Of a stretch of 64,000 nucleotides of DNA, positions 4,774 to 16,670 are shown one piece after another. The DNA comes from Fistulifera solaris (lineage: Eukaryota): assembly GCA_030295235.1 (NCBI GenBank), contig AP026123.1:2170001-2234000 (forward strand). The letters run 5' to 3'. Made by a program: the position numbers and the translations under genes. The notes under the pieces are model-generated. The model made no database searches. It was not told the origin of the DNA and worked only from the letters and a program-made list of their open reading frames with translations. Within the stretch, counting starts at the first letter, position 1. Every line of letters starts with the position of its first letter.

Positions 4774-7191
4774 GAATTTTTATTTGCGAGCTTTCGCTCA
4801 TACAAGAACTAAAGGCAAAGCAAACAATAAACAGCAATGCAGTGTGACGACGTTCACAAGAAACTCAAAGCAAAGGTAAGACCGCCGCAAGGCCGCGCTC
4901 TGTTTTGCTTGAAGCTAACCGTAGCATGATGGTGCATGATCGCGAGAGATCCCGCCAGGCATGACGTCGTTCGTTTGAAGCGAGAAAGACAAGAATGTCT
5001 TTTTTTTTGCGTGTCATCGTTTTTGTCTCGAGAAAAACGCCGGTCGCATTTTTCATTTCGCCTTTTGTGTTTTTAATACAATAGAGTTAGGTATTTGAGT
5101 GCGTGACTCTTTCTCGTGACGACCTCCTCGTGACCCGCTTGACCGCTGTTGCGCTTTTTTTGTCGCTCGGGGCTTTCTGCTTCACAAAAGATTTTCGACC
5201 ATGACGACATGAGACATGACGACGATTGGCTTGTTTGTGTCGCGAAGCGCTTGTATGTTCACTCTGAAACGATGGAGACAAGACGCTGAGGACAACTTTC
5301 GGTGCTGAAGTCATTCCATGATCGACGGAAGATCGTAGAACAGCTCCGTCCCTCTTTTTACTCCAAGGCGGAAATAGGGGCTTGAAAGCGTGAGTTGTTA
5401 AAACGTATGTTTTAGCATGATAAGTAGTCGCAGCAACAGGTTCATGCCGACACAATCAAGCTCTTGTTGCCCCACTTTACTGAACTGCTAAGGTTAAGAG
5501 TGTTTTGAGTTTAAAAGCAACGACGTAACATGCGACGCGCGAAGCATTCATTATATTCATCGCGCCACGGTCAATTATTTTATCACTCTAGCTGACGAGA
5601 CTTCCTTCTTTGCTTTACTTCTTTTCTTCATTTGGAACTGTTTGATCGCCGAAAAGCAGGCGTTTGCGGTACGGGGCGCTCATACTACAGTTTTTCTTCA
5701 TCACTGGCGTCGGCGCGACTTCGCATGTAGACTTGTGAAGCTCTCGAACGCTCGGATAGAAGGCCCACGGTGGATGTCCATACCTCCGGAGATGCCCGCG
5801 GAAATTTCGATGACACTATCAGTGGCGATGAAATGCGAGAAAGGGTGACTGCTTTATCACAGAAGCGGATGGGCGACGAGGACAGTCGAATAAGTATTAC
5901 ATTCATCGTTTGCTAAACTGCATGATATGTCGATCGAACGGGCTCCGCTTTTAGGAAAGATCCGAACGTAGACGGGCTAGCAGAGTCTCATACGTCATCT
6001 GTGAAGAAAGTCTCACGCTTTGAGAGAATGTACAATGAGCTGCATGTTAAAGAGGCAGAGGAGTCGTTCTCAGGAAGTTGTAGTGGATTTCGTCTACGTT
6101 CGGCTTTCATTCGGCGTAATCTTCTCCGGTGACAGAACAGCTAGCGTTCACAAGTACTCGCAGCCGAAGCATTCGCTTTTGATGCGGAAAAAGCACAAAC
6201 CATGTCAATGAAGACCGCGTTTCACGTCGAACTCATACAACGCAACAATCCAATGCTAGCGTTCCTAAACAGCAAGTCTACTCTTGGCAAGAGCCATGAC
6301 GACCCGAGATATGTTTTGCACATTTGCTCAAATACGTGAAAACGACCTCGACTTTCGGACGAATGACTGTTGCAGTGCGACTACACAACTTGCCGTGCGT
6401 GTTTTACGGTGTGCGCTGTCAGGGGTTGTGGCAATCCTGCGCAAGAAAAGTCGTTACGCAGACGATCTGTTACGTCTCGTGGTGCATCGTTTCTTCGTGG
6501 GAAGGCGTGTAATTCTGGCAAGGTTTCCCGCTCATCAATTGCCGCCTTAGGGACTTAGTGTCAACCGGACGAGAAATAATGAACATTCCTGAATGGCATG
6601 AAAGGGACGCGCGTGGTTCCTTTTGAAGGTTATCGCTGGAAACTAGTCAAGGCCGTTTGTTGCAGCAACAAAGAGATTTTGAATGCCGTCCATTGCAAGA
6701 TAGCCACTTACTAGAATACGGTGAAAGCTCATATTCCGATTCTCGAACGGGCTTGTCCATGTACCTGTTGTATCGAACGCCGTCGTCCAAGGGGGAGTGG
6801 CAGCTTGCGAGCCGGACCGGAAACTTCTCTCTGATAAGGCCGATAAAAACTTTGTCGCGGCTCTTTATCGTCACATGGAAGACCTTGAAAAGTTTTATCG
6901 GATACAAAATCGTTCATTGTTTGCGGTGACAGTCACCCGTCAACTGATAGTGAAGACCCGAAAGCAGTGAACTTTTGAAGGCGTTGAGGCCACGCGACGA
7001 AACCAACGAAGATGCCAATCAGTGGATTTGCGTTGAGAAGCGAAAGAGACGAATGCCTGTTACTCTTTGATCGCAGTTTTTACTCAATAGCCGTCCAACC
7101 TCAATAAAGTAAAAGGCACGGAGTACTATGAAGGCACTACGGTTACATGTAAGCTATTTAGAAAAGAAATGAAAACCCAGTCGATCGACGT

Positions 7192-7809: not shown

Positions 7810-9426
7810 CTAGACTGCCTCGTCATTCATCATCGCGAGCCGCCTTCTTGGCAGCACGCAAGAAACCGGAGGAATCGAGACGGACAATGCACCATTCTCC
7901 ACTACGACTGCGGCACCACTAGTTTCAAAATCAACATCCTGCATCCATTCGCAGAATACATCAACGTGAGTCGACAGTAGCAGTGCAGTGAGTTGAAAGT
8001 CGTCCGATGCGCTGTTTACCATCGCCTGTGCCACCAGCAATGGTCGCACCGCGAAAGGCTCACTTATCGAAACTGATGCGCCACGATAGAACCGATTCAG
8101 CAAATAGAGTCTGTCTGTTCCGGGCCCGTACGACCATAGTCCTTGCGAGCAGTCAAGCACCTCGATGTTGCGATTTCGCGAGAGAAGCCGCTCCAACCAC
8201 AAAGAGTCAAACTGGCGAGGATAGTTGGGTGTGTAGCCTTTTTGGCTCGGCCTTGCACAACGAATGTACGCAGTCCCTTGTGCTCCTCCATGGCCCGAAA
8301 AATAGTCTCGAAGTGCTCGGCCCACGGAAATGCCCAGCTGCTGTAGCTCAAATCCAAATATGAAAGCTTGCAATTGGCCTCAATAGCGCGAATCAAGGCA
8401 TTTACCACACGTCTCATGTCGTCAAAAGGTACAACTTGACCCTCCGCTGGATCCGAATCAGAATATTTGTCATTTGACAAAGTCAATCTTTCAAAGTGAC
8501 CTAGCTCCGCCACACGGTTAAAAAGTGAGACCAGGAGCTCGGGTACCTCACCACCACCTCTTATATCCAAGTCGATGTCGCTCGGAACAATATTCAATGC
8601 TTTGAAATTTTCAGGCGAACAACACTCTGCGTGTGTTGACAATTTCAAAGCGTTCACGTTGGCGGCAAAGAGCAGACGGGTACATTCCTTATCAAGGCAT
8701 TCTACACCAAAAACATCCAAAAGATTGAGATTACAGATGCGCTTCAGATGACCGCAAGTAAAAGGAAGCCCATCAGTAATTCCTGTAATACAAAGAGTGC
8801 CAAAGGACGATTGCCTTTTCTCCAGTGTAGCCACATATGCCGCCCCGCCATCTGCAAAGCGAAAGCCATCCTCAAGCTTTAAATTCAAAGGATTAGGCCG
8901 GGATGCAGAACAACGGACTGCTCAGCAGTCCAGGTTCCGGTTACTAAGCTAAGCTCCCGTGTCGGATTCGAATCCAATATCTGGGCAAGCTGCTCGGGAG
9001 AGAGGACAGCTTTGTCGAATTCGACATTCGGCGGGTCATGAAACCATCCGACTTCAAGCATGCTATAGACACGATGATCTTGTTTCAATGACAAAAGAAA
9101 GTGGCCGTCTCCGCAACTGCTGCATCTGTTTCCCCAACAATCGCGCAACACAATGAAAGTTGTCGGCCGGATATCTTAAATACCGCACACTTGCGTTCTT
9201 CCAGCGCCTTGTCCAGTCCATACGGGGAACAAAGAATGACAGTACTGTTGTTCCGCCCTATAGCAGCGTCTTTGTATTTCTTCCAGTCAATCTCGTCGAG
9301 GTGAGTCGGTTCGCGCAACATTTCGTACAAGGGCAAAGGTGTCGGAAGGAGCAATTTTTGCTGCGTCGTAAGCTGCTCCGCTGGAATCAGTTTCAAAATG
9401 TCGTCGTTCTCGTTTGTTTCGTTCAT
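7810..9426 (-). CDS. Lineage-specific hypothetical protein, paralogue 3 (more divergent, frameshifted in this assembly)
   Basis: ORF pieces 9085-9426, 8885-9151, 8097-8888 and 7810-8373 join into a family member (GETDAAVAETAT, EQLAQILDSNPTR, RVAELGHFERL, WLERLLSRNRNI). Confidence 0.75.
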
Positions 9427-9623
9427 ACTGAAAATTGAAGACGTCTTGGGAGCGAAAAAGGTGCGACGAAGCTATAGAATGAATGAATAGCAACGCGCCG
9501 CAGCGAAAGTGCACAAACTAAAAGCCGCCGCTCTGTCTTGCTTGAAGCTAGTCGTAACATAGTGGAGACGAGCGAGAGGTCCCGCGTCCCGCCAGGCATG
9601 ACGTCGGTCACCGCAAGAAGGGC

Positions 9624-9991
9624 TGTTGAATAACCAGTCACGCACGTGTCTACAATAAACGGAAAGACATGTGCACTACATATTACATGATACTGAAAAC
9701 GAGAAGCGAACAGCAATCTACCTAATCCCGAATCCTCGTTATTCAAAGAACTAACAGCTGCCGAAGGAACCTAAACTATTACTGACAAAGAACAATGCCA
9801 GCAGCTTCTGCATATTCTACATGAATCAAATGAGAACAATGAAGAGACAAACAAGAATTCAAATCAATAGGATAACTTCATTTACTAGCTCATAATTTTA
9901 ACAAGCAATCCGTTTGCAGCAATCCGTTTGCACCAAGTTAATTTTGTCAAGCCCAATCCATAGACGGCTCCGGCACCTGTGGATTTCAAGA
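9624..9991 (+). repeat. 5' LTR (TGTTGAA...TTCAAGA)
   Basis: Identical by eye to 15435-15802; contains an internal tandem AGCAATCCGTTTGC x2. Confidence 0.95.
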
Positions 9992-10055
9992 CGCTTCCTC
10001 TGCTTCAAGTGACCATAAAGCTCCGCACTTTATAACAACTACTTCGTTCGACGAA

Positions 10056-11328
10056 ATGGCTGACGCTAACGCCGAACAACGCCAACCAAAACCTCGCTGC
10101 TCCCGTAGCAGTAGCCTTTGCTCTAAGCCCGGCTTGAGCACCCACCATGTCATCGACTTCTCTACTCGCTGAAGGATCTCGCCTCTACGAAATGGCGACC
10201 AAGCAGATTGGAGATGAACGATTCGACTGCGATCCCGGTCGCATGCGCTCTCCTTCATCGAAGGACTTAGCATCCGTGCTAGCAACTTTGGTTGGGGGCC
10301 GATCTTCAACATCCCCGACGATATCGAAGCCATCGAGCCTGTCCAGAACACCACCAACCTCCTCTCCAACTACGGAGACATTACTTTGGAGCACATTCAA
10401 GCTCACGCACGCACATACATCGGTACCCAGACCCGTGCAGCGCCAAGACTCCTACATGGCAGCCAACTGCCTCATTTCCTCTCTAAGCCCAGCCGCCATC
10501 GATCGCATCACGATCTGGCGGGACCAGTACACCTTTGATGGTATCCCCAGCGGGCCTTGCCTGTTCAAAGTCATCATCCGTGAGACTTACATTGACACAA
10601 ATGCAACGGTCACGCATTCGCACGCAGCTCTCCAGTTTGGACCAGTACTTACCTAAGATTCAGCACAACATCACCAAGATGAACCAGCAAGTTAAACAGC
10701 TATTGGAAGGCTTGGCAGCGCGAGGAGAAACCACAAACGATCTTCTTGGCGAATCTCTTTAAGGGTTACAAGGCAGCCTCCGATCGCACCTTTGTCAACT
10801 ACATCCTGAAGAAAGAAGAAGATTACCACGAAGGTCTTCCGATGACACCGGATCACCTCATGAACCTAGCAGATAACAAGTACAAGACCTTGGTACAACT
10901 TTCTCTGTGGAACGCGCCTTCGGAAGAAGAAAAGATTCTCGCATTGGAGGCAAAACTCCAAAAGTTGGAAAGCAAAAGAAGACCGAAAACAAGCCAAAGC
11001 ATCAAGCCAAAAGCAAACCCCAGCGCAACAGAAACACTCCCAAGCCAGACTGGATGTCGGTGCCTCCAAAGGACGACGAACCCAAGCAGAAAACAGTTGA
11101 GGGAAGCGAGTACTTCTGGTGCGAAAAGCATAACTCATGGGGCAAACACAAGACGGTTGATTGTCGCCAAGCCAACATCCGCAGACCGGGAGTCTCCAAA
11201 CCCGGGGCGAAGAAAGAGCGACTCGTCAAAGCGCTAGCTGCACTCCTCAATGACAGCGACAGCGATGAGGACGACAACGTAGATGAGTATTCGGACGCGA
11301 AGTGACAACGGCAAGCGACAGTGAATGA
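10056..11328 (+). CDS. gag: Retrotransposon Gag (frameshifted in this assembly)
   Basis: ATG at 10056, followed by FALSP, GPCLFKVIIRE, NLFKGYKAASD, the knuckle WCEKHNSWGKHKTVDC and an acidic tail. The stop is at 11303-11305 as read, or at 11326-11328 after correcting two single-A insertions. Confidence 0.8.
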
Positions 11329-14300
11329 CTTACCAAGTCTATCTGGCGGTACCTCAGCTTCAGCTGGGACTGGCTTCTTGCCTGCACCGCAACCCTGATC
11401 TACTGCTTGTTCTTTGACCACGTTAATGACATTGCGACTCGCTACATTCCTAAACGACTTCGAAAGGAAACCATTAGTAAGCGATTGAAAACACTTGGTC
11501 AACGGGTCGGCAGTCCAATTCAGACTTACCTGGTCCGCATTCACACAGTATGGATACGAAATTCCACGACCCGAACGGTCCTTCACAAGAGGCGAAAAGC
11601 AGCAAGGCAGGCACTCTACTTTTCTCATACACCACTCATTCGATTCCGCAATCCAATAGCCAGATGGTGGAGACAATGGAAACTGCGTCAAAGGAGATAT
11701 GTGTTAATGATGACAGCGATGTGTTACAGTGCAAACGCGGTCCCACAAGTACTTACCAAGACTTTTGATACCGATTCAGTTCCAATTGGTGTCGACAATA
11801 GATGCTCAGCGTGCATCTCCCATGTCGCGACGGACTTTGTTGGAAAACTACAGGAGACCAACTTGATTATCAAGGCTTTGGCGGTAACCGCACCAGCAAT
11901 GTGATGAAAGGCACTCTGAAATGGTCATGGGAAAATGATGAGGGCAAGATGACATCATTCACGATTCCAAACTCATACTACGTACCAGACGGCAAAGTTC
12001 GACTTCTATCACCGCAACATTGGGCAAAATACACCGGAAACAAACTCTCTGGATGTGATACCACGAGCAAACATGCGATTCTGTATTGGGGCAGCAACAA
12101 GAAAACAATTCCGATTGATCCACGCTCAAACGTTGCAACGTTTTACTCCGCCCCCTGGCTGCCGCGAATTTCAAAACCTTCTGCTTCGAAGCATCGATTC
12201 CTGACGATGAAGACGACAATCCGCTTTGTTTCGATGCAAACACAGTCGACACAACACCTTCAGAGGGAGCGAGCGCAGATTCAGAGGGAGCTGAACCATT
12301 TCGCAGCCGCACAGTTGACTTCGAGTTCGACGGCAATCAACAACAACACAAACCGGTCATACAGGAAAGTGACACAACAACAAGTCAAACAGTTCCAGCA
12401 GCCGAATTGCTCACTTACCATCGTCTTTATGGTCATGCGCCGATGGAGAAGCTTCAGGAATTGGCGAAGCAAGGAGTTATTCCACGCCGACTTGCAACGT
12501 GTCCGACACCGGTGTGCACCGCCCTGTTTTTACGGAAAAGCAACAAAGCGTCAGTGGCGAACGAAACCAGCTAAACAAAGCAAAACCCTTCACAAGCCTA
12601 CTCACCCCGGCGAAGTTGTTGCTGTGGATCAAATGGTATCACCCACGCCCTGGCCTCATTGCGCAGCTCACAGGAATCTTGACGACAAAACGCTATTTGT
12701 ACTAGCCACCGTCTTCGCCGACCTTTATTCCAGCTTGAGTTATGTTCACCTGCAAAAGACACAAAGTGCGAGTGAGACCTTGGAAGCAAAACACGCTTTT
12801 GAACAATACGCTCGAAATTGTGGAGTCGACAAGATCAAACACTATCATGCCGACAATGGAATTTTCAATTCGAACACTTGGGTCAACGATTGCGTAACAA
12901 ACGGTCAGGGACTTTCCTTTGCAGGAGTTGGAGCACATCATCAAAATGGCAAAGCTGAACGCATAGGACAATTGCAAGAACTCACTCGAGCGATGCTGAT
13001 CGATGCACAACACAAGTGGCCGCAAGCCATCACAACTCACCTGTGGCCTTATGCTTTGCGCGCATGGCAAACGATTCCATCAACCACATGCCAAACATGA
13101 AGCACCCTGAGCGCCGTACTCCTTATCAACTCTTCGCCAACACGGATATTCATTCGAATCCAATTCATTGGAAACCATTCGGTTGCCCAGTATTTGTTCT
13201 TGACGCCAGCGCTTCAAGGAGGAAAAAGTCGGATATTTCACAAATGGCGCTCTGCGCTCACATCTCGGAATTTATTTGGGACGTTCTCCAGTACACAGCC
13301 GTTCTGTCGCCCTGGTACTGAACCCAGACACAGGACTCGTCAGTCCCCAGTTTCACGTCAAATTTGATTCGAAATTCCAAACTGTTCCGGACCTTGCGAA
13401 AACATGTTTGTGGCAACTCAAAGCCGGTTTTATTGCCGCTCCAAGCGCAAATCCTCAACAATCCACGCCTACATTGTCGGATACACCTACTACTACACCC
13501 GCCGACCTCTCTCCGTTACCGATGCCGCTGCCGACCGCACCACCTGATGACAATGTTCCGTCCACCGATCGTCAACCTGAACCACTTTCCTCTCCATCGC
13601 CACCACAATCTCAGAGGGAGAGACGCAGCACTCGCCAACGACGTCCCGTTACTCGATTAATAGAGATCATGATCGCAATGTTCGCTAGTGAACTCAGTCA
13701 ATCATCGGCCGACATCAAAGGGGAACTTTTGCTTACGAATCTCTTCAAACCGCCTCAGCAAAACTCAATCCACCGGATCCATTCTATGTTTTCAAAACGA
13801 GCGCCGACCCCGATTCAATGTATTTGCATCAAGCTCGCAAACAACCCGATTGGCCGGAGTTTTCCAAAGGCATGGACGCCGAAATCGAGGATCAAATGGC
13901 AAATGGAAATTTCTCATTGTTTCCAAGGAGTCAAGTTCCAGAGGGAGCAACGATTCTACCAACAGTATGGCAACTTCGCCGCAAACGAGACATTATGACA
14001 CCTTGAAGTCAAGAAGTGGAAAGCGACTGACTATTGATGGGTCACGGATGAAATATGGTCGCTGACTATGAATTGACCTACTCTCCGGTTGCTAATTGGA
14101 CTTCAATCCGCTTGTTACTAGCAATGGTGATCATACATGGTTGGCATACGAAGCAACTCGATTATGTTCAGGCATTTCCTCAGGCTTCGCGCGACAAAGA
14201 AATTTATCTGTCCATTCCGAAAGGATATACAATACACGGAGCATCCCCGGACGATTATGTTCTGAAAGTCCACAAGAATGTTTATGGAGCAAAGGATGCA

Positions 14301-15414
14301 AGTCGAACATGGTTCCTTTATTTGCGAAAGTAACTATTTGAGATCGGTTTCAAGCAATCGGAATACGACGAATGTGTGTTTTACTACAAGAGCACGATGT
14401 ATGTTCTATATACCGACGACAGTATTCTTGGAGGTCCTAATGAAAAGGAAATTGAGGAAATTATTGAAAAGATGAAACAGATCAAACTAGACATTACAGT
14501 TGAGGGAGATTTATCGGATTTTCTGGGAGTTAATATCAACAGGATCGGTGAATCAACAATTGAATTGAAACAGCCACAACTCATCGACCGATAATCAAAG
14601 ACATGAAATTCGACCAGAAGGAAGTTAAAACAAAGGATATTCCAATGGCATCATCGAAGCTACTTTCGCAGCATCCCAAATCGCCGCCATTTGACAAAAG
14701 TTTTCATTACACTTCAGTCATCGGAAAAATGAACTACCTGACGCGAGGATCCAGGCCAGACATCGCCCTATGCGGTACATCAATGCGCACGCTTTGCATC
14801 AAACCCAAGGAAAGAACATGGAGATGCAATGAGATGGCTTACAAAGTATCTGATAGGGACAAGGGACAAAGGAATGATTCTGCACCCAGACGTCTCTAGA
14901 AGCTTGGAAGTTCATGTCGACGCCGATTTCGCAGGCAATTGGGATCCAGAGATCGCTTTTGAGGACCTAAACACAGCTCGCCTCCAGACACGGATTTTTC
15001 ATCACCTATGCCGGAGTATTGTTGCATCACAAGAGTCAACTTCAGACAGAGATTGCATTGAGTTCCACCGAGCTTAATTCACCGGATTGAGCTACGCACT
15101 CAGAGATGCAATTCCTATCATGAACACTTTGAAGGAGATGCAATCACTCGGATTTGATGTGAAAGAGTGGAGGCCAAAAGTCCATTGCAAAGTATTTGAG
15201 GACAACTCGGGAGCTCTGGAAATCGCAAAAGTTCCGAAGGCTCGACCAAGGACGAAGCATTTGAATGTCAAACTGCACCATTTTCGGTCATACGTTGACA
15301 GCGGAGATATAACAATCCACAAAATCGATACTCGAACAAGTTGCGGATATTCTAACGAAACCACTCACATTTGATCTCTTTGCCAAACATCGGAAGGCAA
15401 TTCTCGGATGGTGA
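11329..15414 (+). CDS. pol: Retrotransposon Pol (protease, integrase, reverse transcriptase, RNase H); multiple frameshifts
   Basis: PR: IGVDNRCS. IN: HH-CC region, VAVDQM, YHADNGIF, QNGKAE. RT: DYVQAFPQA, YTDDSI. RH: VHVDADFAG, VFEDNSGA, RTKH. Ends ILGW-stop at 15414. Confidence 0.9.
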
Positions 15415-15434
15415 GATCGCAGTTCGAGAGGGAG

Positions 15435-15802
15435 TGTTGAATAACCAGTCACGCACGTGTCTACAATAAACGGAAAGACATGTGCACTACATATTACATG
15501 ATACTGAAAACGAGAAGCGAACAGCAATCTACCTAATCCCGAATCCTCGTTATTCAAAGAACTAACAGCTGCCGAAGGAACCTAAACTATTACTGACAAA
15601 GAACAATGCCAGCAGCTTCTGCATATTCTACATGAATCAAATGAGAACAATGAAGAGACAAACAAGAATTCAAATCAATAGGATAACTTCATTTACTAGC
15701 TCATAATTTTAACAAGCAATCCGTTTGCAGCAATCCGTTTGCACCAAGTTAATTTTGTCAAGCCCAATCCATAGACGGCTCCGGCACCTGTGGATTTCAA
15801 GA
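15435..15802 (+). repeat. 3' LTR
   Basis: Direct repeat of 9624-9991, preceded by the polypurine tract. Confidence 0.95.
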
Positions 15803-16125
15803 AAGGGCGCCGCTGTCATGATGTAGCAACAAGCATCGTTGCAGCGATGCGATCGCGATGATGATGCGGCAATGAATTGTTTACTGCGGTAGAGTTCAAG
15901 GTATTTTGACAGGGAATCGCTTGAAAGCTCGAACCATAATGAGGCGCGAGGTTCTCACATTTTTGCGCCTCGCATCGTCGCGTTTCGTCGCGTCCGCGAC
16001 AACAACAACAACGCAATCAACAATGCAACTCATAACAATGCAAATAAATCATCACTCGCGCAATCAATCTACTTTTGCGTCCTTGATTGACTTTCTCATT
16101 TGAATGTAGAATAGCAGTTTCAATA

Positions 16126-16670
16126 ATGTATACAAAATGCCGACCGTTGCTGTCGTTGAGACGCCCGATGCTCTCACGCCGCTGCTTCGCGGAAGACGCC
16201 TTTCGCGTCTTTGATTTGCCACTCCGGTTTGCCCTCGATGAAACGGCACTTCGACAGCACTATCGTCAACTCATGGCACAACATCATCCCGATCGAAGTT
16301 TTGGTAACGATGACATGGCTTCGTTGATTACACGATCGTACGACACCTTGCGCTACAAACACCGCCGGGCGATGCATTTGATGGAATTGTTGGGACAGCC
16401 GGTCGATGAATCGTCGTCGGGGGATTTGGTGGGTCCGGGATTTTTATTCGAAATGATGGAAGCGCGAGAAGAGATCGAAGGTGTGGGGAAGATGATCAAT
16501 TGCGGCCCTTGTTGGACGAGAATCGACGGCGCATGGAGGATATGGCGGTTCAACTCGATCAGGCTGTGCAACAGAACGATTTGGAGACGGCGAAACGACT
16601 TACGGCCCGATTGCAGTATTTGAATCGATTAGAAGAAACGATCCGGGAGAAAATGGATACTATAGATTAA
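16126..16670 (+). CDS. HSCB: Fe-S cluster co-chaperone HscB/Jac1 (mitochondrial)
   Basis: J-domain with HPD (QHHPDR) and FLFEMMEAREE. The C-terminal LTARLQYLNRLEETIREK is recovered after a frameshift near 16485. Confidence 0.88.

Follow-up and report, generated by a model that had tools for sequence, protein, structure and literature searches.

How does a Copia-type retrotransposon make its Pol protein when a stop codon stands between gag and pol and the two genes, as assembled, lie in different reading frames? This question is raised by a 64,000-nucleotide (nt) stretch of the genome of Fistulifera solaris (contig AP026123.1 of assembly GCA_030295235.1, positions 2,170,001 to 2,234,000 of the forward strand), which we call the window and in whose coordinates all positions are given. 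The TGA at 11326-11328 of the window is the gag stop of a young 6.2-kb Ty1/Copia retrotransposon, bounded by long terminal repeats (LTRs), at 9624-15802. An earlier reading made from these letters without any comparison, here called the sequence-only reading, had proposed that the element expresses Pol by readthrough of this UGA. Having compared the locus with short-read contigs and with relatives from metagenomes, we consider it probable, on comparative sequence grounds, that the element carries gag and pol in one frame with a UGA between them, that Pol is produced by occasional readthrough of this UGA, and that the frame break in the assembly is an error. The proposal of Pol expression by readthrough is supported in this comparative sense, and the site would be a further case of gag-pol UGA readthrough, a type of mechanism that is already known.

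Most Copia elements set their Gag:Pol ratio by a single open reading frame (ORF) combined with splicing or degradation, or by frameshifting, and in Drosophila copia the gag:pol ratio is regulated by splicing. To our knowledge, stop-codon readthrough in Copia elements has so far been a curiosity of Tca2 of Candida, where the mechanism is unclear. Tca2 (pCal) of Candida albicans is a Ty1/Copia element with gag-UGA-pol in one frame, and downstream of its UGA an RNA structure is predicted (PMC2194720). According to that report, pol derives from gag-UGA-pol RNA, and the junction alone gave no readthrough in S. cerevisiae (Forbes et al. 2007, PMC2194720), so that Tca2, which the sequence-only reading had taken as an established precedent, is not established there as a case of simple readthrough.

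In diatoms, the CoDi elements are Ty1/Copia elements in which ORF1 lies upstream of a polyprotein ORF2 (Maumus et al. 2009, PMC2806351), and the element in the window resembles them in this arrangement. The text of that paper holds no occurrence of 'readthrough' and gives no stop identity, context or structure, although its Additional file 1, an image outside the text search, may list such stops. In the literature that we searched, mostly at the level of titles and abstracts and with most subscription journals outside it, no description of UGA readthrough in diatom retrotransposons was found.

The gag stop in the window and in its relatives

The junction reads GAA TGA CTT at 11323-11331. The Pol frame (position modulo 3 equal to 1) is open directly after the TGA, from 11329 to 11904, and its first methionine is codon 127 after the stop; the 126 codons without methionine agree with the roughly 125 of the sequence-only reading. 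The four codons that precede the TGA in the Pol frame read SDSE, and the resulting SDSE-TGA-L matches the DSE-TGA-L of the relatives L017, L002 and others. The 16 nt around the stop (CGACAGTGAATGACTT) are identical between the window and L017, and the position of TGA 11326 is that of the gag terminator in all relatives examined. Taken as a sequence match, the agreement of the site with L017 and the other relatives appears to be far more than chance would give. Downstream, the Pol proteins of relatives align to the window from about 11353 on (tblastn), sharing with it a hydrophobic segment, ND..RYxPKxxR and FDTDSxxIGxDNRCSxCIS. Since the N-termini of the relatives' Pol proteins align there, the stretch after TGA 11326 is, by homology, genuine coding sequence.

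The relatives were collected from JGI and ENA metagenome contigs, which were scanned with an alignment of Pol N-termini (A1) and the peptide pattern DNRCS[AG]CI, yielding 76 loci. When the pol frame is followed backwards from the protease motif, nine of these reach the end of the contig; 67 loci meet a stop, and in 57 of them the first is TGA. A gag hidden Markov model (HMM), trained on 32 upstream ORFs, none shorter than 400 residues, identified 56 loci with both a gag C-terminus and the protease motif. In 51 of the 56, gag and pol share a frame; exactly one stop, always TGA, separates them in 47 of the 56, and four loci have two or three stops with TGA the first in each. The first stop after gag is therefore TGA in 51/51 same-frame loci and, as these form 39 clusters at 80% nt identity, in 39/39 clusters. 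The five loci with gag and pol in different frames each carry an indel elsewhere in the copy. Four of them belong to a clade with a GGYETE tail, in which the ...E-TGA tail and a same-frame continuation can be recognised; in the different-frame locus L020, gag terminates at a TGA after ...GYSS. As a control, the pol terminators of the 15 loci with full-length pol are TAA in 7, TAG in 7 and TGA in 1.

The stop is followed in the cluster representatives by an open frame of 61-254 codons up to the protease motif. The first methionine of this frame lies anywhere from codon 3 to codon 133 (median 19) and its position is not conserved; in 4 of the 22 relatives among the 39 cluster representatives that have a [YFH]xPKxxR motif, it is found downstream of this conserved motif. 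Gag comprises about 420-510 and pol about 1370-1540 codons in the lineage, and intact relatives show a single in-frame TGA over the approximately 1,800-2,000 codons of gag and pol together. An extra in-frame case, GAA TGA CGG after a 507-codon gag, came from a contig filed under a cyanobacterial metagenome-assembled genome. A scan of genome_contigs gave three loci, one of which, L077, is a true relative; the other two (E = 3e-4 and 4e-4) have no gag and look unrelated, and in viral_contigs none of 33 pattern matches was confirmed as a relative. Named relatives are limited to two proteins of the diatom Fragilaria crotonensis, at 37-38% identity, and by this protein similarity the element belongs to a lineage whose named relatives are from a diatom.

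Two relatives depart from the common pattern. Among 268 proteins, only P0026 is a gag-pol fusion without a stop; this protein of 1878 amino acids has a short gag tail with a Cys near the expected stop, and possibly represents a TGA-to-TGY variant or a deletion. In L069, which has an intact pol of 1365 codons, the TGA is followed four codons on by an in-frame TAG (TGA CTC ATT GCG GCT TAG, 454-471), so that either two readthrough events would be needed or the TAG is a recent mutation.

Stop context and predicted RNA structure downstream

In the mechanism that we propose, gag and pol would be in one reading frame with a single UGA between them, and TGA 11326-11328 would be the readthrough terminator of the window copy. 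Most ribosomes would terminate at the UGA and release Gag, and a minority would decode it by a near-cognate tRNA and continue into Pol, the outcome being a Gag-Pol fusion at a low ratio. The likely signal would consist of an A before the stop (mostly in GAA), the UGA, usually a C at +4, a G near +10 to +12, and a stem-loop with its 5' arm starting some 6-11 nt beyond the stop. Readthrough is favoured because gag and pol keep strictly to one frame, because the gag terminator is exclusively UGA, whereas most pol terminators are TAA or TAG, because the frame beyond the stop is open over 61-254 codons with no methionine at a fixed position, and because context and structure are of viral type. We infer from these comparisons both the in-frame reading of the window's junction and its decoding by readthrough.

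Of the 39 clusters, 23 have GAA and 3 have GAG directly before the stop; the base at +4 is C in 22, T in 10, G in 4 and A in 3, and +12 is G in 28. The triplet at +4 to +6 is variable, with CGN in 8 clusters, CUN in 8 and UGG in 6. The window, with GAA-UGA-CUU-ACC-AAG, has an A at -1 and a C at +4. The sequence-only reading had asked for a GAA-TGA-CTN conserved across related diatom elements; of this, the TGA is conserved in all 51 same-frame relatives, while GAA and CUN are each confined to the share of clusters just given.

Folding of the 100 nt after the stop gave a mean z of -1.71, against -0.22 to -0.96 at seven control offsets, and the first helix of at least 5 bp begins at +8 to +14 in 21 of 39 clusters as compared with 87 of 366 control anchors (Fisher p = 1.8e-4). 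Six chosen relatives have fold z values of -1.9 to -3.75. In an alignment of a seven-sequence clade, a hairpin from +10 is kept and four of its pairs are changed on both sides. For a second clade (L048, L052, L056, L051, L064 and L070), the consensus came out as a trivial 5-pair hairpin, MAFFT being unable to align its loops of variable length, and for this reason an alignment-free duplex test was used. In this test, +9 to +26 pairs with the element's own +33 to +135 at -14.4 kcal/mol and with the corresponding regions of other elements at -10.4 (mean z of own versus other -1.29, Wilcoxon p = 7e-6; p >= 0.098 at nine control anchors); for the window itself the own-versus-other z is -0.2 to -1.5. 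It is therefore likely, as far as folding predictions go, that an element-specific stem begins about 8-11 nt downstream of the stop in this lineage.

The predicted signal likely resembles that of UGA readthrough of the alphavirus type ('type II'). Viral UGA readthrough is described by Firth et al. (2011, PMC3159437) by the pattern xxA-stop-CGx-xxx-xxG, followed after a spacer, given as 8 nt or as 7-12 nt, by an extended stem-loop. The type II signals of alphaviruses, tobraviruses, furoviruses and coltiviruses (UGA-CGG or UGA-CUA), as presented there, share with the Copia lineage the UGA, the A at -1, the C at +4, the G at the third base of codon +3, the spacer of about 7-12 nt, stem arms up to about 100 nt apart, and a stem whose sequence varies between members while its pairing is kept. 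They differ from it in that they serve replicase or coat-extension genes of RNA viruses rather than a retrotransposon gag-pol; in the Copia lineage, known here from sequence alone, +4 to +6 are variable and the structure is in some members no more than a short local hairpin. Gammaretroviruses (murine leukaemia virus, MuLV) likewise suppress a gag terminator to make Gag-Pol, with a structure about 8 nt downstream (PMC3159437), but they differ in using UAG instead of UGA, in having a compact pseudoknot in place of an extended hairpin and in belonging to another retroelement family. Tca2 is similar in being of Copia type, with gag and pol in one frame, a UGA between them and a structure 3' of the stop; it differs in its fungal host, its unrelated Copia lineage, its proposed pseudoknot and a bypass that is termed non-canonical, whereas the signal of the present lineage resembles viral type II and is conserved across 39 clusters.

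We lean somewhat, and with less confidence than for the window element itself, towards a broader view. According to this view, a large Copia clade, probably of diatoms and abundant in marine and freshwater metagenomes, would obligatorily use alphavirus-like UGA readthrough to make Gag-Pol, with A-UGA-C, a G near +12 and an extended, element-specific 3' stem-loop, and would have a hydrophobic, membrane-anchor-like segment only on the readthrough product. If true, this would be the first lineage-wide case of readthrough in the Copia superfamily. Its dozens of divergent signals, each combining a viral-type context with a 3' stem that co-varies, would form a natural series in which one could test whether the 'extended 3' structure' rule of RNA viruses holds for a cellular retroelement. 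Annotation of the lineage would then have to carry gag-pol across the TGA as a single unit, and the junction would be a candidate readthrough cassette for diatom genetics.

The assembled frame break and alternative readings

As assembled, the gag frame (position modulo 3 equal to 2) ends at a TGA at 11303-11305, out of frame with pol, as the sequence-only reading had observed. To bring the two into register that reading had removed two single inserted As, one at 11300/11301 and one at 11313/11314, which by correct arithmetic gives DEYSDA-SDNG-SDSE-TGA-LTKSIWR. We compared 10000-15400 with Logan contigs from four public runs, one labelled with an organism and the others being wetland, sediment and freshwater metagenomes. 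The gaps are counted in gap letters, as verified on X1 record 5 and X2 record 13, in each of which 6 = 3 + 2 + 1. Relative to the window, the contigs have 2 letters in and 1 out over 10450-10831 (X1 record 1), 5 in and 1 out over 10562-10943 (X2 record 10), 4 in and 1 out over both 10625-11039 (X3 record 18) and 10701-11091 (X5 record 26), and 6 in and 1 out over 10802-11538 (X1 record 2); there are no gap letters over 11062-11298 (X5 record 27) or 11339-11561 (X3 record 19). Subtraction would leave about 2 letters in and 1 out, a net change of +1, for the interval 11299-11338, which adjoins the assembled gag stop.

A net +1 in this interval would bring pol (frame 1) into the gag frame (frame 2). 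The junction has short acidic, serine-rich readings that resemble the gag tails of relatives, DEYSDA in frame 2, SDNG in frame 0 and SDSE in frame 1, and these three readings in three frames fit such a repair. The shared frame that the sequence-only reading had arrived at is thereby retained, the contigs' net +1 being equivalent to its net -2, and the inserted As themselves are not: the repair is probably one extra letter and two missing letters, by which the tail gains one codon. The earlier gag stop, at 11303, was most likely created by the assembly. Programmed -1 frameshifting, considered for the sequence as assembled, was rejected, the TGA at 11326 of the pol frame lying downstream of the gag stop at 11303 and leaving the frames without overlap.

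The junction is one of many such places, gag and pol of the window copy having at least 13 frame changes and two in-frame stops when compared by the gag HMM and by tblastn of relatives. The comparison of indels with the contigs gave 42 places, of which 12 are listed, none at the junction; at all 12, every covering contig differs from the window and the contigs agree across runs. The in-frame stop at 14331 is a T>A difference in all covering contigs of X1, X2 and X3. The window differs from the main contigs of X1 by 29 gap letters and 13 substitutions, several of the substitutions being doublets, such as TT for GC. We take these many small indels to be most likely assembly or base-calling errors, and error is favoured over decay because the LTRs are identical, the target-site duplication (TSD) is intact and the differences are rich in indels. 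A flagged C directly follows CG at 7 of the 25 listed sites (contexts of CGC type), and a CG lies within 6 nt at 17 of the 25, compared with 51% of background 12-mers; the pattern looks like a systematic error of long-read base calling, perhaps at methylated sites of a silenced transposon. An exact 25-nt pattern from 11340-11364 had no match in genome_contigs or viral_contigs. The lesson for other loci is that long-read assemblies can hold clustered indel errors within transposons, and that the frame relations of a single copy are not to be trusted.

Several observations weigh against readthrough of an in-frame UGA in the window. In the letters as they stand, gag terminates at 11303 in another frame than pol, and the in-frame junction is reconstructed from gap arithmetic and homology, its letters included. 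The gag HMM was made from upstream ORFs of the same frame, so that the detection of gag is partly dependent on the arrangement, although frames and stop identities are independent of it. The base at +4 is other than C in 17 of 39 clusters, and the triplet after the stop in the window is CUU, the classical CGG or CUA being absent. Control windows upstream of the stop likewise show slightly more stable folding than their shuffles (mean z about -0.9), and the window's own hairpin, predicted at 11345-11407 with a 16-nt spacer, is weak and not significant (z = -1.28, with 21 of 200 shuffles equally good). Finally, the closest Copia precedent is Tca2, whose junction by itself gave no readthrough in a yeast reporter and held a minor internal promoter (PMC2194720).

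The strongest rival, which we nevertheless consider unlikely, is that the window copy is genuinely dead and frameshifted, so that it truly has the stop at 11303 along with its remaining frame breaks and yields no Pol, whatever its relatives do. The number of frame changes and in-frame stops speaks for this reading, and contigs lose rare variants, so that the missing window version proves nothing and a truly broken single copy is compatible with them. The LTRs, moreover, are without any difference, which random error at about 0.8% would rarely permit; error must therefore be systematic, or the copy really defective. On the other hand, identical 368-nt LTRs and an intact TSD indicate a very recent insertion, too recent for 40-odd indels, gap letters outnumber substitutions, which is the opposite of natural decay, and the recurrent doublets together with the many CGC-context sites are as expected of systematic base-calling error. 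We therefore continue to favour an intact gag-UGA-pol frame. Given such a frame, Pol could still be translated independently, by an internal promoter, an internal ribosome entry site or reinitiation, with the in-frame layout incidental. We regard this as improbable, more so than a dead copy. The minor promoter of Tca2 would be a precedent, a methionine lies within 10 codons of the stop in 7 of 38 relatives, for which separate initiation is possible, and gene callers place methionine starts directly before the hydrophobic segment in several relatives. But neither the scattered position of the first methionine, which in the window is as far as codon 127, nor its location beyond the YxPKxxR motif in some relatives agrees with a dedicated start, and independent translation predicts a free choice of frame and of stop, contrary to the 51/56 loci in frame and the 51/51 with TGA in a lineage whose pol mostly ends in TAA or TAG.

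Removal of the stop from the RNA, by a short intron or other processing that would leave a spliced mRNA encoding Gag-Pol, has its precedent in Drosophila copia and is in our view very improbable here. Coding conservation reaches the codon at -1, with the acidic tail and GAA, and resumes at +1, and no contig of the four runs, whose origin from RNA or DNA is uncertain, skips the junction; the sole joint listed is one of LTR type, from 15400 to 10006. Least probable of all is that the UGA is a sense codon, read as selenocysteine or in a reassigned code. Nothing besides the in-frame TGA itself speaks for it, the samples that yielded the relatives are many and their hosts presumably so too, and a reassigned codon would recur, whereas intact relatives have one in-frame TGA in the whole of gag and pol; on this count a selenocysteine or variant code was rejected. 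Occasional readthrough of a terminating UGA remains the explanation that we prefer.

Anatomy of the element and its surroundings

All features of the element other than its TSD are on the forward strand. The 5' TSD, AAGGGC at 9618-9623, recurs at 15803-15808 after the 3' LTR. The 5' LTR, of 368 nt and starting with TG, occupies 9624-9991 and is identical at 368 of 368 nt to the 3' LTR at 15435-15802. The latter is abutted by a putative polypurine tract, GAGAGGGAG, at 15426-15434, its function being suggested by its position. The assignment to Ty1/Copia is made because of the LTRs, the TSD and the placement of the Copia-type reverse transcriptase domain (Pfam RVT_2) after the integrase.

Gag (ORF1) extends over 10147-11325 with at least four frame changes as assembled, and presumably starts at the first ATG of the ORF 10138-10656. 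The gag HMM of the relatives matches 10248-11272 with its positions 67-432 of 438, passing through frames 0>1>2>0>2, and an alignment with P0026 covers 10356-11006. No Pfam family was found in gag, either in the pieces of the window or in three intact relatives, and a protein search with the gag C-terminus (10877-11305) among proteins of near length gave no match at E <= 0.001 among 12 candidates.

Pol, with protease, integrase, reverse transcriptase and RNase H, was recognised by tblastn with 120 relatives and extends over 11329-15414, its terminator in the window copy being a TGA at 15412-15414, and carries at least seven frame changes and the two in-frame stops as assembled. Near its N-terminus are the hydrophobic segment WDWLLACTATLIYCLFF at 11365-11415, relatives being hydrophobic at the equivalent place, and the YIPKRLR motif at 11443-11463, which conforms to [YFH]xPKxxR and whose Y, P, K and R columns are invariant in alignment A1. 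In the lineage, the first 30-90 residues after the stop comprise a transmembrane-like hydrophobic segment followed by a conserved ND..[YFH]xPKxxR motif, which match no known Copia Pol domain and would occur only on a readthrough product. The protease region at 11770-11830 reads FDTDSVPIGVDNRCSACISH and includes the DNRCSACI motif at 11794-11817, invariant in alignment A1 and the source of the pattern used in the scan. DTD[SA] and DNRCS are conserved here in the lineage, with no obvious D-T/S-G-A retropepsin motif, and Pfam gave no protease family in this region. A homologous integrase ORF at 11802-13100 lies upstream of RVT_2 (14052-14594), which is interrupted by the assembled stop at 14331 and is matched by PF07727 in two parts, 14052-14333 (E = 5.6e-16) and 14334-14594 (E = 3.4e-06). 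In the intact relatives L017 and L002, RVT_2 is matched at E = 1e-41 and the order in pol is gag_pre-integrs (about residues 410-460), a retroviral SH3-like domain (about 660-735) and RVT_2 (about 946-1188).

Some contigs are permuted. A contig of X3 joins 15400 to 10006, so that the internal region of the element closes on itself from 3' end to 5' start, and gag lies downstream of pol on the contigs of two relatives, L031 (4162-5157) and L071 (4235-5098), as expected from tandem copies, one-LTR circles or a collapsed multicopy assembly. Directly upstream of the 5' LTR, 9357-9609 has copies of 76-80% similarity at 1495-1758 and 4889-4972 and represents another dispersed repeat. A neighbouring TRAPP gene places the host among the eukaryotes and no more narrowly than that. 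Downstream of the element, a host gene resembling J-domain/HscB proteins at 16087-16670 (+) is split over two frames (16087-16623 and 16410-16670), which points to an intron or to an assembly frameshift outside the element.

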